This document shows, one piece after another, positions 7,483 through 28,326 of a stretch of DNA of 64,000 nt. Location: the sequence record PZ452610.1; one strand, written 5' to 3'. The number at the start of each line of letters is the position of its first letter. The stretch's first letter is position 1. The position numbers were made by a program, and so were the translations under genes. The notes below the pieces were generated by a model. It saw only the letters and a list, made by a program, of their open reading frames with translations, had not been told where the DNA came from and made no database searches. This DNA is from a phage.

Positions 7483-8616
<1,134 letters not shown>

Positions 8617-8633
8617 TCAGTTAGTTTTTTTAA

Positions 8634-8663
8634 ATTGTACCACAATCCTTGTGGTATGTAAAC
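8634..8663 (-). promoter_or_regulatory. T4-type early promoter (rnlA)
   Basis: GTTTAC -35, 18 bp, TACAAT -10; upstream of rnlA start 8607. Confidence 0.5.
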
Positions 8664-9073
8664 TACTTTTTCTTATGTTGGATATTCCAAGGCGGGTTGA
8701 ACTTTTTGATAAAAAGCGGTTCTTCAAGGTCCATTGTTGCGATGGTCATTGAACCAAGTTCGTTGGTGACTGAAAGGTCAAAACATTGGCGGGCCCAGAA
8801 TTCAACCTTTTTGCCTTGCATTAAGGCATCCAAAATCATAAGTGATTTTCTTGAATCTGAAGTCTGGTCTTTTCGATTTATGGCTGTTCGATAGTAGTTA
8901 ATGCGTTTCTTTAAATTCTTGGTTTTACCAATATACACAAGTTCGTCATCTATAGCAATAGCGTATATGACATTTTTCTTATTAGGGACATCAACTGTTT
9001 TAATTGTTGCATCTTCTAATAGCTCCAATTCTGTATATTTAATAAAGGAATATTCGGCGGCAATATCTTTCAT
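8663..9073 (-). CDS. denA: endonuclease II (GIY-YIG type)
   Basis: 136 aa as in T4; VYIGKTKNLKKRINYY GIY-YIG-like motif; position between rnlA and nrdB. Confidence 0.8.
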   Translation of the reverse strand: MKDIAAEYSFIKYTELELLEDATIKTVDVPNKKNVIYAIAIDDELVYIGKTKNLKKRINYYRTAINRKDQTSDSRKSLMILDALMQGKKVEFWARQCFDLSVTNELGSMTIATMDLEEPLFIKKFNPPWNIQHKKK

Positions 9074-9102
9074 AATAAAGTGGGACCGAAGTCCCGTCCT
9101 TA
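9074..9102 (-). promoter_or_regulatory. hairpin-bridged (split) ribosome binding site of denA
   Basis: mRNA reads UAAGGAC-GGGACUUCGGUCCC-ACUUUAUU-AUG: SD AAGGA overlaps nrdB stop, 14-nt UUCG hairpin separates it from denA AUG (23 nt linear, about 9 nt if hairpin forms). Confidence 0.45.
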
Positions 9103-10275
9103 GAAATATTTTTTGTATGAATTGATTACATTTTGGTCTACATCATTATCAATTTGTGCGACAAGATAAGAACTGATTTCAACTTCCTGAGGAGCTGCTT
9201 GAACTAAATCGGAGTTCAGATATTCACGAATCCAAGGATACGGATGCTTGGTCGGAGCATCAGTGATTGGGCATGGCAAACCACACTGTTTCATACGAGA
9301 CACAGTCAAGTAATCAACAAAAGCACACATACTCTGTGTATTGATACCTGGGCATGTACCTTCTTTAAAGAGGTGTGCAGCCCATTCCTTCTCTTGACTA
9401 TTTACTTCCATAAAAATGTCAACTGCTTCTTGTTCACATTCTTTAGCAATTCGAACCCACTCATCGCCATCAGTACCAGATTGAAGTTGACGGATAATGT
9501 ACTGAGTACCCTTGAGGTGGAGTTGTTCGTCACGAGCAATGAACTTCATAATCTTTGCATTACCTTCCATAATTTCCATATTTTTATGGAAGTTGAAAGT
9601 ACATGCAAATGATACGTAAAAACGAATAGCTTCTAAGGCATTGATAACATGCAAACAGAGATAAAGAGACTTCATTAAATCACGCTTGGCGTTAAACATT
9701 ATTTCTTCGTACATCTCAATATCATTCTGCTGGCATGAGCCTATTGAACACTCATAAACTTCCTTAGCATTTTCCCAACGACGAGTCTTGTCTAGAACAT
9801 CATCGTAATATTTACCTATTGATTCGGCTCGTTTCATGATTGCTTCGTCTAATACAATCTCATCAAATACTTTGGATGGATCAGTATAAAGATTTCGCAT
9901 AATATGAGTATATGAACGAGAGTGAATAGTTTCACTGAATGTCCATGTTGCAACCCACGTATCTAATGAAGGGTCGGAAATCAGTGCCATAAGTACCGCA
10001 GATGGGGCCCTGCCTTGGATAGAATCTAATAATGATTGATACTTAAGATTGTTTGTAAAAATGTCCTGTTGGAACTGAGGAAGCTTATTGAACTGTGCAG
10101 AGTCCAACATCAAGTTTACCTCTTCGGGGCGCCAGAAAAATGACAAGGATTTTTCTATAAGTTCTTCAAAAACTTTATGTCGTTGAATATCGTAACGTGC
10201 AAGACCAAGACCGGAACCAAAGAACATCGGTTCGTTCAAAACATCGACTTGTTGTGTATTAAAAACTGTACTCAT
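9100..10275 (-). CDS. nrdB: ribonucleotide reductase small subunit
   Basis: 391 aa; di-iron R2 family, T4 NrdB-like; uninterrupted (no intron). Confidence 0.9.
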   Translation of the reverse strand: MSTVFNTQQVDVLNEPMFFGSGLGLARYDIQRHKVFEELIEKSLSFFWRPEEVNLMLDSAQFNKLPQFQQDIFTNNLKYQSLLDSIQGRAPSAVLMALISDPSLDTWVATWTFSETIHSRSYTHIMRNLYTDPSKVFDEIVLDEAIMKRAESIGKYYDDVLDKTRRWENAKEVYECSIGSCQQNDIEMYEEIMFNAKRDLMKSLYLCLHVINALEAIRFYVSFACTFNFHKNMEIMEGNAKIMKFIARDEQLHLKGTQYIIRQLQSGTDGDEWVRIAKECEQEAVDIFMEVNSQEKEWAAHLFKEGTCPGINTQSMCAFVDYLTVSRMKQCGLPCPITDAPTKHPYPWIREYLNSDLVQAAPQEVEISSYLVAQIDNDVDQNVINSYKKYF

Positions 10276-18713: not shown

Positions 18714-21700
18714 ATGGCCGACATCAAACGTAAGTTCAGAGCCGAAGACGGTCTGGACGCCGGTGGCGACAAGATTGTTAACGTAGCATTAGCCGACCGT
18801 ACAGTAGGTACTGATGGCGTAAACGTTGACTTCCTGGTACAAGAAAACACCGTTCAAGTATATGATTCTACGCGTGGATATAACAAAGGATTTGTTGTTC
18901 TTTATGACAACCGTTTATATCAAGCAATAAATGATATCGTGTCTCCTTCCGGGGCATTTAACCTTTTACAATGGCGTGCAGTTCGTACCGATGCACAATG
19001 GATAACTGTCGCTTCTGGGACTTATCAACTTTCTTCAGGTGAATCTATTTCGGTTAACACTGGTGCCGGCAATGATATGGTTTTCACGTTGCCAAATACG
19101 CCGGTTGATGGTGATACTGTTGTTTTGGCTGATATTGGTGGAAGAACCGGGACAGTTAAAGTACAGATTAACGCGTCTGTGCAGAGTATTTTAAACTTTA
19201 GAGGTGAACAAGTTCGTACAGTTTTAATGACGCGCCCACGTTCACAACTATTGTTTGTGTTTAGTAATCGTTTGTGGCAGATGTATATTACCGATTATGG
19301 TAAAGAATCAATCACTGTTACACCTGCGACACCATATCAAGCACAAGCAAATGATTTTATCGTTCGTCGTTTTACTAGTGCAGCACCAATCAACATTACA
19401 CTTCCACGTAATGCTAACAATGGTGATATAATCAGCCTAGTCGATTTAGATAAATTAAACCCACTGTATCATACAATTGTTAAAACATTTGATGATACAA
19501 CGTCTATTGGTGAAGTCGGGACTCATATTGCCGAAGGCAGAAATGACTCTGACGCGTTTTTTGTTTTTGATGCTGCAAATAGTTTATGGCGTATACGGGA
19601 AGGCGACCAGAAATCACGTCTTCGTATTATCCGTGCGGATTCAAATATTCGTCCAAATGAAGAAGTTCTTATTTTTGGCACAAATAACGCTACAACCGGA
19701 ACTATTAATCTTACGCTGCCTACCAGAATTTTGAGTGGTGACACTGTTAAAATTTCAATGAACTACATGCGTAAAGGCCAAACAGTAAAAATTAAAGCTG
19801 CCGAAGGTGATACAATTGCTTCTTCTGTTGCATTGCTTCAGTTCCCTAAACGTTCTGAATATCCACCTGATGCTCAATGGGTCTCTGTTACTGAACTAGA
19901 ATTCAATGGCACTACTTCATATGTTCCTGTATTAGAATTAGCGTATATCGAAGACACTGATTCTGACACTCACTATTGGGTTGTGCAACAGAATGTCCCT
20001 ACGGTAGAACGTGTTGATGCTGGAAATGATGCTACACGAGCTCGTTTAGGTGTTATTGCTCTTGCTACTCAAGCGCAAGCAAATGTTGATTTAGAGAATA
20101 CTCCAGCTAAAGAAGTGGCTATTACTCCGGAAACATTGGCAAATCGTACAGCAACTGAAGCTCGACGTGGTATCGCTAAAATTGCTACAACAGCACAAGT
20201 TAACCAGAATTCCACAGCATCATTTGTGGACGATACTATTGTTACGCCTAAAAAACTAAATGAGCGTACAGCAACTGAAACTCGTCGCGGTCTTGCTGAA
20301 ATTGCTACTCAGACTGAAACCGATGCTGGTCTTGATGACACAACGATTATTACACCTAAGAAATTGCAGGCACGTCAGGGTTCTGAAACACTATCAGGTA
20401 TAGTTAAATATGTATCAACTACTTCTGCTACTCCTGCTGAAACTCGTGGTGCTGCAGGCACTAACGTTTATAATAAAACCGTAAATAATTTAACTATTTC
20501 TCCTAAAGCCCTTGACCAATATAAAGCAACTTATGCTCAACAAGGTGCAGTAATTTTAGCTGTTGATAGTGAAGTAATTGCTGGTCAATCACAAGCAGGT
20601 TATTCTCACGCTGTAGTAACTCCTGAAACACTACATAAGAAAACTTCTACTGATGGACGTATTGGTTTAATTGAAATTGCTACGCAAGCAGAAACTAATG
20701 CTGGGACTGATTATACACGTGCAGTAACGCCTAAGACGTTAAATGATAGGAAAGCTACGGAAGGATTATCCGGCATAGCCGAACTTGCTACGCAAGTTGA
20801 ATTTGATACTGGAACTGACGATACTCGTATCTCAACTCCACTGAAAATTAAAACTCATTTTGATTCTTCTGACCGTACCAGTGTTAATTCTGATTCCGGA
20901 CTTATTGAAGAAGGAACCTTGTGGAACCATTATACTCTTGATATTTCTAAAGCAAATGAAACACAACGTGGTACACTTCGCGTAGCGACTCAGGCAGAAT
21001 CTAATGCAGGAACTTTAGATGATGTTCTTATTACTCCTAAAAAGCTTTTAGGGACTAAGTCCACTGAAACGTCTGAAGGCGTAATTAAGGTTGCTACTCG
21101 GGCTGAAACTGTAACAGGAACTTCTGCTAATACTGCTGTATCTCCTAAGAATTTAAAATGGATTGTCCAGTCTGAACCAACATGGGCTGCTACTACGGCG
21201 ATTCGTGGATTCGTTAAAACTTCATCTGGTTCTATTACATTCGTTGGTAATGATACAGTTGGTTCAACGCAACCTTTAGAATCATATGAAAAAAATAGCT
21301 ATGCTATATCTCCATATGAATTAAACCGTGTACTTGCTAACTATTTGCCGTTGAAAGCTAAAGCCATAGATAGTAATTTATTAGATGGTCTAGATTCATC
21401 TCAGTTCATTCGTAGGGACATTGCACAGACGGTTAATGGTTCACTAACCTTAACCCAACAAACGAATCTGAGTGCCCCTCTTGTATCATCTAGTACTGCT
21501 ACGTTTGGTGGTTCAGTTTCGGCAAATAGTACATTAACTATTTCTAACTCTGGAACAGCTACTCGACTGATTTTTGAAAAAGGACCTCAGACCGGAACAA
21601 ATCCTGCTCAAACTATGACTATCAGAGTTTGGGGAAATGAATTTGGTGGTGGTTCAGATACAACACGTTCTACTGTATTTGAAGTTGGCGATGAAACATC

Positions 21701-23730: not shown

Positions 23731-23748
23731 GGGAGACTTCGGTCTCCC
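23731..23748 (+). terminator. intrinsic terminator downstream of gene 35
   Basis: gggagacttcggtctccc followed by atttttg on plus strand; 5 nt after gene 35 stop. Confidence 0.7.
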
Positions 23749-27400: not shown

Positions 27401-27743
27401 TGGCATACCCAATAACATATTCTATGACGGATATAATAGTGTAGGTGCAAACGCCAACGCTAAATTCACTGGAACCGTGAACGGTGCTACTGCAGGGTCG
27501 AATATAGCCAAAACTTCTTCAGAAGGTAACCATACACACTCTTGGTCAGGAACCACAAGTACCACAGGTAACCATGCTCATACTGTGGGTATTGGTGCTC
27601 ATACCCATTCGGTAGGTATTGGTGCTCATTCTCATACTGTTGCAATTGGTTCCCATGGACATACAATAACTGTAAATGCCACAGGAAATACAGAAAACAC
27701 AGTTAAAAACGTTGCTTTTAACTATATCGTTCGTTTAGCATAA
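24462..27743 (+). CDS. 37: gp37 long tail fiber distal subunit (receptor-binding tip)
   Basis: 1093 aa; T4 gp37-like N-terminus, C-terminal His-box (GNHxH) repeats and tandem repeat. Confidence 0.9.
27234..27306 (+). repeat. 30-bp tandem direct repeat inside gene 37 (2.4 copies)
   Basis: ggtactaaaaccacatcaagctttgattat / ggtactaaaacatcttcaagctttgattat / ggtactaaaacca, encoding [25 protein letters not shown]. Confidence 0.9.
27585..27668 (+). repeat. 27-bp tandem repeats encoding His-box units in gene 37 tip
   Basis: three consecutive units encoding GIGAHTHSV / GIGAHSHTV / AIGSHGHTI; part of a wider GNHxH-rich region from about 27200. Confidence 0.85.
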
Positions 27744-27756
27744 GGAGAAGGGACTT

Positions 27757-28326
27757 ATGTCCCTTTTTTATAATATGAAACTCTATCACTATTATTTTGA
27801 CACTAAAGAATTTTACAAAGAAGAAAATTATAAACCATTAAAAGGCGTAGGATTTCCGGCTCATTCGACACCAAAAAAACCTTTAGACCCTAAAGAAGGC
27901 TATGCTGTTATATTTGACGAACGCGAGCAAGAATGGGTATATGTTGAAGACCATCGTGGAAAAACGGTATGGACTTATGATAAGCAAAAAATTGTTATTG
28001 ACACTCCAGGTGCTCTTCAAAATGTTACTACAGAAGAACCCGGTGAATTTGACATTTGGACCGACGACGGGTGGAAGGAAGATGAAGCATATAAACGCGT
28101 AGTTCAACGTGATAAGAAAATTCATGAACTCTATAAATTATTCAGTGTTTTAAGTTCTCTTATTGACGCAGAGGTTGCTAGTAGAGAAGAAAAACGAAAA
28201 TTTAAAGAGCTCAAAAAATTCTTTGCCCTTTTAGAAAAACATGAACATCTTGGCGGCGAATTCCCTAAATTCCCTGACCTTGAAAACAAATCTATTATCA
28301 AAGCGATTATAAATATCTTTAAGTAA
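27757..28326 (+). CDS. 38: gp38 tail fiber assembly chaperone (T4 type)
   Basis: 189 aa; KLYHYYFDTKEFYKEENYKP... matches T4 gp38 chaperone rather than T2-type adhesin. Confidence 0.85.
   Translation: MSLFYNMKLYHYYFDTKEFYKEENYKPLKGVGFPAHSTPKKPLDPKEGYAVIFDEREQEWVYVEDHRGKTVWTYDKQKIVIDTPGALQNVTTEEPGEFDIWTDDGWKEDEAYKRVVQRDKKIHELYKLFSVLSSLIDAEVASREEKRKFKELKKFFALLEKHEHLGGEFPKFPDLENKSIIKAIINIFK
28308..28315 (+). promoter_or_regulatory. T4 late promoter (TATAAATA) for holin t
   Basis: tataaata inside 3' end of gene 38, 21 nt upstream of t ATG. Confidence 0.6.

Follow-up and report, generated by a model that had tools for sequence, protein, structure and literature searches.

The junction between nrdB and denA in the phage DNA studied here probably carries a hairpin-bridged, or split, ribosome-binding site (RBS) of the type known from T4 genes 38 and 25. 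The stretch analyzed (the window; 64,000 nucleotides (nt), sequence record PZ452610.1) is RB69-like T-even phage DNA of the genus Mosigvirus, and the junction lies on its minus strand, where nrdB is followed by denA and then by rnlA from 8607. The Shine-Dalgarno (SD) sequence of denA, UAAGGA (9097..9102), is a 6-nt match to the 3' end of 16S rRNA, and it begins with the nrdB stop codon UAA (9102-9100), as read from the sequence. A single unpaired C (9096; 0-3 nt at the same place in relatives) separates the SD from a 14-nt hairpin, GGGAC-UUCG-GUCCC (9082..9095), in which a 5' arm (9095-9091) and a 3' arm (9086-9082) form 5 base pairs (bp) around a C(UUCG)G tetraloop (loop at 9090-9087). A U-rich 8-nt spacer, ACUUUAUU (9074..9081), leads from the hairpin to the denA AUG (9073-9071), and the mRNA across the junction reads AAA UAU UUC UAA GGA C GGGAC UUCG GUCCC ACUUUAUU AUG AAA GAU. 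The distance from AAGGA to the AUG is 23 nt, or 9 nt once the hairpin is taken out, and the gap between the nrdB stop and the denA AUG is 26 nt. The first-pass annotation had described an AAGGA overlapping the nrdB stop 23 nt before the AUG, a 14-nt hairpin between the two, and a spacing of about 9 nt with the hairpin folded; the first of these is exact in the sequence, the second is present in both the minimum free energy (MFE) and centroid folds, and the third is exact arithmetic (23 minus 14). Its interpretation of the junction is supported on those elements that a sequence can test: the distance, the lack of an alternative SD or start, the looped-out spacing, covariation, and precedent.

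In the proposed mechanism, no promoter serves denA from within the stretch between hairpin and AUG, and the gene would be read from transcripts running through nrdB. The compact hairpin would fold and be looped out on the 30S platform, leaving the sole SD and the AUG at a normal spacing, and the 30S subunit could then bind both together, which would be the same working mode as at the gene 38 and gene 25 sites of T4. If so, the ribosome uses the bridged SD, and translation of denA needs folding of the hairpin. Translation of denA may plausibly be coupled to that of nrdB: the stem begins 4 nt after the nrdB stop, and a ribosome positioned on that stop must cover its 5' arm. As for its origin, the hairpin would be one of the tetraloop hairpins that T-even phages commonly carry between cistrons.

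Spacing and start codon of denA

Anti-SD duplexes were scored upstream of the 104 annotated starts mapped onto the window, and spacing was counted from the A of GGA to the start codon. The spacing is 5-12 nt in 76 of these 104 genes, with a mode of 7; that of denA is 23. At the canonical distance the best anti-SD duplex for denA is -2.9 kcal/mol, compared with a median of -6.0 over all 104 genes, and denA is among the 11 genes in which the canonical-zone duplex is weaker than -3 kcal/mol. The distal UAAGGA of denA reaches -6.9 kcal/mol and is the strongest distal site among those 11 genes, and no other strong anti-SD duplex lies within 45 nt of the AUG. The description of AAGGA as the sole SD-like element of the gene, also made in the first-pass annotation, stands on this contrast between the canonical zone and the distal site. 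Most of the other window genes with distant SDs have a shorter SD at normal distance, and a hairpin between SD and AUG is absent from them, the gene 38 homologue excepted.

The coding sequence of denA (8663..9073, minus strand) is an open reading frame (ORF) of 136 amino acids that encodes endonuclease II, a GIY-YIG enzyme, with a match to PDB entry 2WSH (E = 1.4e-67). A true start codon elsewhere had been named in advance as an outcome that would undo the proposal, and on examination ATG 9073 holds: it is the first ATG, GTG, or TTG after an in-frame stop, and conservation of the DenA N-terminus, MK(D/E)IA, runs from this AUG onward in all relatives. Codons 2-9 of denA contain no start codon, and residues F10, Y13, and L16 are invariant among relatives.

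It is scarcely credible that denA starts elsewhere, for example at the upstream GTG annotated in T4, and that the split RBS is an artefact of a wrong start. Both T4 references (NC_000866.4 and AF158101.6) do begin denA at GTG 137951 (L001 601-625, L052), giving a protein of 144 amino acids; this GTG is 24 nt upstream of the ATG, where it follows the SD immediately and falls in the hairpin region. However, the window has no in-frame ATG, GTG, or TTG upstream of the AUG, and a start at the GTG would leave 0 nt between it and the SD. The gap between the nrdB stop and the AUG is 26 nt in the window and 27 nt in T4, so the GTG extension is not in a conserved frame and is in frame only in T4-type sequences. 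Protein conservation starts at MK(D/E)IA, and the crystallized T4 endonuclease II (2WSH) begins with a His tag, after which comes MKEIATEY; position 118, numbered from that Met, is Ala. The 136-amino-acid ATG start is a better call for T4 denA than the annotated GTG, and the T4 records are likely mis-annotated.

Two further starts in the window, at 19758 (plus strand) and 17103 (minus strand), are without an SD at normal distance, and their canonical-zone duplexes are at least 0 kcal/mol. Upstream of 19758, a 4-bp AGUG-GUGA-CACU hairpin overlaps a GAG. The start annotations at both positions may be in error.

Conservation and covariation of the junction

The junction build is not peculiar to the window. 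A total of 69 nrdB-denA junctions were retrieved from GenBank phages, IMG/VR, and metagenomes, and 68 of them share the same build: an SD, 0-3 nt, a GC stem of 4-7 bp with a tetraloop, 6-10 nt, and the AUG. These 68 comprise 29 distinct variants, one of them new from the metagenome scan, and identity in DenA is as low as 60%. The build is found in Mosigvirus, Tequatrovirus (T4), and Gelderlandvirus, all confirmed by taxonomy, as well as in unclassified contigs. The SD at or next to the nrdB stop takes the forms UAAGGA, UAAGGAG, UAAGGU, AAAGGA, and UAGGAG. For example, T4 has UAAGGAG U GGGCC GCAA GGCCC AUUUUAUU AUG, in which a spacing of 23 nt becomes 7 nt when the hairpin is subtracted, and phage Melville has UAAGGU AAA GGGC UUCG GCCC UUUUUUAAU AUG; stems in other relatives include GAGGGC/GCCCUC, UAGGGC/GCCCUA, CAGGGC/GCCCUG, and AAGGGC/GCCCUU.

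Among 28 variants, the linear spacing from SD to AUG is 22-28 nt, and the hairpin-subtracted spacing is 5-13 nt with a mode of 7-8 (8 nt in 10 variants, 7 nt in 6), which matches the canonical distribution of the window's own 104 genes. The stem lies 6-10 nt from the AUG, again with a mode of 7-8. The GGA(G) directly 3' of the nrdB stop is kept in 27 of the 28 despite being non-coding. One relative (L040) amounts to a natural insertion, as its stem is longer by 2 bp and the total distance by 4 nt while both flanks are unchanged.

The one exception among the 69 junctions (L025; IMGVR_UViG_2974786931_000001, about 690-705) has neither hairpin nor SD; the TGA of nrdB overlaps the ATG of denA (cttATGA), and in this arrangement stop/start coupling appears to be the only means of translating denA. 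Distant homologues of denA from Aeromonas phages and Krischvirus (31-50% identity) are uninformative on the junction, because denA is not downstream of nrdB in them; they were set aside for the junction and used as contrasts. In Krischvirus Brandy (L053 348-397, MZ504876.1), the upstream gene is not nrdB, and a 7-bp GNRA hairpin, GGCGGGA-GAAA-UCCCGCC, with a U-rich tail lies upstream of denA; here the gene has a separate, normally spaced SD, GAGGAAAGGA, after the hairpin and 5 nt before the AUG. Both contrast cases behave as a split-RBS model predicts.

Covariation of the stem was assessed on 25 distinct sequences, aligned without gaps and anchored at the loop (A3); a MAFFT alignment with mis-registered loops was dropped. 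Within the 6-pair helix, 96.7% of alignment cells are paired, and four of the six pairs have changed on both sides (27 cells). The covariation score is 0.478, compared with 0.165 +/- 0.030 for shuffled alignments, and none of 500 shuffles scored as high; control helices slid along the alignment fall to 20-68% paired. Pair 15-22 occurs as GC, CG, or AU, pair 12-25 as GC or AU, and pair 11-26 as AU, GC, UA, or CG. The loop is UUCG in 18 of 23 arm-distinct variants and GCAA, GUAA, UUUG, UUAG, or CUUGA in the remainder; the stable tetraloops UUCG, GCAA, and GUAA have been exchanged among relatives. Pairing that is kept through compensatory changes and loop swaps identifies the denA hairpin, on this comparative evidence, as a selected RNA structure rather than a DNA-sequence motif. 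The same inverted repeat read on the plus strand was dismissed, having neither a U tail nor a co-oriented gene.

Stability, termination, and coupling

The energy of the hairpin is -7.5 kcal/mol in isolation and -9.0 kcal/mol in context. It had been called very stable; stable it is, but the "very" has to be dropped, since the window holds 11 C(UUCG)G hairpins with stems of 5 bp or more on transcribed strands, and this one is the weakest. The 81-nt junction segment folds no better than its shuffles (z = -0.75), as expected for one small hairpin, so chance must be judged from relatives rather than from energy. The C(UUCG)G tetraloop hairpins of T4 mRNAs reportedly form a class of their own, associated with Tuerk et al. 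1988, and the denA hairpin fits that class in having a UUCG loop closed by C-G, a GC-rich stem, and an intercistronic position. The window has 32 occurrences of the string CTTCGG where 15.4 +/- 3.7 are expected, a twofold excess; together with the compensatory changes among phages, this takes the denA hairpin beyond chance. The ten further C(UUCG)G hairpins have stems of 5-9 bp and lie at 444-425, 15427-15410, 31872-31855, 33396-33383, 35742-35727, 42249-42234, 51672-51651, 57634-57613, and 59389-59370 on the minus strand and at 23731-23748 on the plus strand. They are 22 to more than 105 nt before the next start, mostly have U runs after them, and from these features look like terminators or RNA-stability elements. 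Unlike these other intercistronic hairpins, that of denA adjoins a start codon; its stem is the shortest and its U tract is poor. When hairpins are counted whatever their loop, five stable ones are found 15-26 nt before a start, each with a separate SD after it; a start directly behind a hairpin with the SD in front occurs in the window only for denA (8 nt) and gene 38.

Several observations weigh against a split RBS. A recognizable SD is lacking in 16 of the 104 window genes, so the phage may be capable of initiation without one. In the denA family the tails are 62% U, compared with 28% at positions -8..-1 of other genes, and such U-rich tails fit a role in termination or RNA stability no less than any other. 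The 5' arms of the window's other hairpins often contain G-rich, SD-like strings, so that an SD look-alike is more readily expected beside a hairpin than in random sequence. With a covariance model derived from the denA junctions, 8-10 other window hairpins are matched at 15-29 bits, none of them within an RBS. The bases of the SD are unpaired with a probability of about 0-0.2 in naked RNA according to ViennaRNA. Finally, the junction variants share ancestry, so that counts over them are not independent. As a search for new split sites in the window, the covariance model was unspecific, returning mostly generic UUCG hairpins with U tails, and was rejected. An Rfam scan of 8600-9500 found nothing above chance level, with best scores of 13.8-17.6 bits against thresholds of 40-176 and E > 1.

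The U-rich tail raises the question of termination. If the hairpin were mainly an intrinsic terminator, a 3'-exonuclease barrier ending the nrdB mRNA, or both, it would keep denA mRNA low and the SD look-alike would be incidental; read-through denA would then be translated without bridging, for example by re-initiation after the nrdB stop 26 nt upstream. This account is unlikely, although several observations favor it. With a stem of 5 bp, 4 of them G-C, a 4-nt loop, and 5 T in 8, the denA hairpin passes a loose terminator scan; an ARNold-based annotation in ATK47 lists a terminator at the hairpin, and several other records have a terminator feature under the match. By sequence it is of one class with the other C(UUCG)G hairpins of the window that have U runs after them, and the exceptional junction with overlapping TGA and ATG implies that denA is able to use pure stop/start coupling. 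A terminator inside T4 mobE, in the nrdA-nrdB region, is weak (30-50%) and has been shown experimentally to limit expression of a nuclease gene (PMC2790892); it resembles the denA hairpin in its GC stem, UUCG loop, and U-rich tail, and it lies in the same genomic neighborhood.

The terminator scores themselves point in both directions. By a d'Aubenton-Carafa-type discriminant with modern energy parameters, of which only the ranking is meaningful, the window's denA hairpin (T = 1.22, d = -43) is among the worst of the 11 UUCG hairpins, and its tail starts with AC, while the T4 version scores d = +24.7. The score is above zero in 12 of 28 variants and below zero in 16, and some variants have tails that are not U-rich (AUAAAGCU or GUAAAGCU); the geometry of SD, hairpin, and AUG, with 6-10 nt before the AUG, is nevertheless intact in all 28. 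Conservation of GGA(G) after the stop, in non-coding sequence, likewise speaks against an incidental SD.

Transcript levels in T4 bear on the same point. In the RNA-seq data of PMC6024815 (Table S1), the read density of denA is 0.4-0.9 of that of nrdB, depending on condition and on how the intron is counted: about 0.4-0.6 in wild-type infection, a drop that favors the terminator reading, and 0.6-0.9 in motA-am infections. These densities indicate partial termination at most. The wild-type mean reads are 41,621 for nrdB (1,765 nt including the intron), 6,028 for denA (435 nt), and 23,842 for rnlA (1,125 nt), and the dip in density at denA with recovery at rnlA would fit decay or partial termination at the junction, with rnlA served by a separate promoter. 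There is no space in which denA could have its own promoter, so termination must be leaky, and because the density of denA is 0.4-0.9 of that of nrdB, read-through mRNA that carries the hairpin is abundant and has to be translated. A terminator role can also coexist with a split RBS as an added one. A role as terminator or RNA stabilizer is plausible but secondary, given the poor scores with geometry kept, the conserved non-coding GGA(G), the read-through, and the contrast cases. In some lineages, such as T4, the hairpin is probably also a weak terminator or 3'-end stabilizer of the nrdB mRNA; in the window the U tract is too poor for this to be its main job.

A combination of both roles can be envisaged in which the hairpin is a dual-purpose, translation-sensitive attenuator, a single 14-nt element acting on both transcription and translation, although this is distinctly unlikely. 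A ribosome ending nrdB, on a stop 4 nt before the stem, would block a weak terminator hairpin behind RNA polymerase, and transcription would reach denA only where nrdB mRNA was being actively translated; after departure of the ribosome, the hairpin would refold and the denA RBS would be assembled. If this were true, the ratio of nrdB to denA would be set by the hairpin twice over, in transcription and in translation, across Tevenvirinae.

Accessibility of the SD has to be considered separately. In both the MFE and the centroid folds of naked RNA, ViennaRNA adds a lower helix, UAAGG:CUUUA, below the core stem, formed between the SD and the CUUUA of the spacer, with which it is weakly pairable; the AUG is mostly unpaired in the predicted fold. 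The lower helix could mask the SD in naked RNA. It is very unlikely that the extended helix, UAAGG:CUUUA under GGGAC/GUCCC, serves as a translational brake that hides the SD until a ribosome finishing nrdB melts it, with positive coupling and no bridging. A purine-rich SD opposite a U-rich tail does recur in relatives, with outer pairs that are mostly G-U or A-U, and a terminating ribosome, to judge from the ribosome footprint, must open a stem that begins 4 nt after the stop. However, the lower helix contributes -1.4 kcal/mol, which is far outweighed by the pairing of SD and anti-SD (-6.9 kcal/mol). The outer positions pair in 13-18 of 23 variants, mostly as G-U and without compensatory changes, and variants with AUAAAGCU or GUAAAGCU tails are unable to form the lower helix at all. 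A melted hairpin would also leave the SD 23 nt from the AUG, beyond the working range in the window genome, whereas a folded and bridged hairpin would bring it within that range.

Genomic setting and known split sites

The closest record to the window is NC_041863.1 (E. coli O157 typing phage 3), which is 99.99% identical in reverse orientation. A 290-nt segment of the window (19452-19741) matches both ends of this linear record, so the window spans its arbitrary ends, which are terminally redundant as deposited. The nrdB coding sequence (9100..10275, minus strand; 391 amino acids) is identified both as an ORF and by annotation in NC_041863.1; it is one continuous ORF without an intron, while the nrdB coding sequence of T4 is joined from two pieces and contains an intron. 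Upstream of rnlA, a sigma-70-like sequence, TTTACA-17-TACAAT, is present at 8662-8634 on the minus strand.

The mechanism of bridging is itself already known, and denA would probably be its third natural case, apparently the most widely conserved, beside the two textbook cases from T4. No paper that assigns denA a split RBS, or places a terminator at its junction with nrdB, was found in the literature searched; key older T4 papers and the genome review lie outside it, so an older description is possible. The 29 natural variants are a ready-made mutational series, and the arrangement suggests how a nuclease that degrades host DNA has its expression linked to the nrdB message upstream. Split sites are mis-handled by gene finders and RBS calculators that assume a linear distance from SD to AUG, and the T4 references, with the denA GTG inside the structure, are one example. 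The reach of the finding is limited, and no new field is opened by it.

The window contains a second site of this design, at its gene 38 homologue (27741-27777, plus strand), where the sequence UAAGGAG AA GGGAC UUAU GUCCC UUUUUUAUAAU AUG is found. The stop codon UAA of gene 37 overlaps the SD, the hairpin is at 27750-27763, and the AUG is at 27775; the GGGAC/GUCCC stem is identical to that of denA. Starting from AUG 27775, the protein begins MKLYHYYFDTKEFYK, matching T4 gp38, MKIYHYYFDTKEFYK. In NC_041863.1, gp38 instead begins at ATG 27757, which is in frame and falls within the hairpin loop, another example of mis-handling by annotation; this start is probably six codons too long.

Among known systems, T4 gene 38 is the closest to denA. 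The SD of gene 38 is 22 nt from its AUG and is brought to 5 nt by an intervening structure, and mutations that destabilize the structures at the T4 split sites reduce initiation (PMC3014915, Uzan and Miller); denA is absent from that review's account of split sites. The likeness to gene 38 proposed in the first-pass annotation is borne out by the T4 gene 37-38 junction, UAAGGAG A GGGGC UUCG GCCCU UCUAAAU AUG AAA, where the spacing is exactly 22 nt and the design is that of denA: an SD, UAAGGAG, that overlaps the upstream stop, a single nucleotide, a GC stem of 5-6 bp with a C(UUCG)G loop, and a short (6-nt) tail before AUG AAA, with the spacing cut from 22 to about 5 nt. Gene 38 differs in being a late gene after gene 37, while denA is an early or middle gene after nrdB; its tail is not U-rich, unlike that of denA, and its site is backed by mutations, while that of denA is known from sequence.

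The junction also resembles ATGA stop/start coupling, because an SD placed over the nrdB stop puts terminating ribosomes beside the denA initiation region, and the ATGA overlap is used directly for denA in the exceptional IMG/VR contig and in Aeromonas phages. Unlike ATGA coupling, the window's denA has 26 nt and a stable hairpin between stop and start. T4 gene 25, at the gene 26-25 junction, has an "accommodated" RBS in which, as in denA, a distant SD is brought nearer by an intervening structure, in this case from 27 to 11 nt; this comparison is drawn from the summary in PMC3014915 (Nivinskas 1999; Malys & Nivinskas 2009). According to the same review, the gene 25 structure is kept among close T-even phages and confined to them, whereas the denA arrangement spans three genera as well as unclassified contigs.

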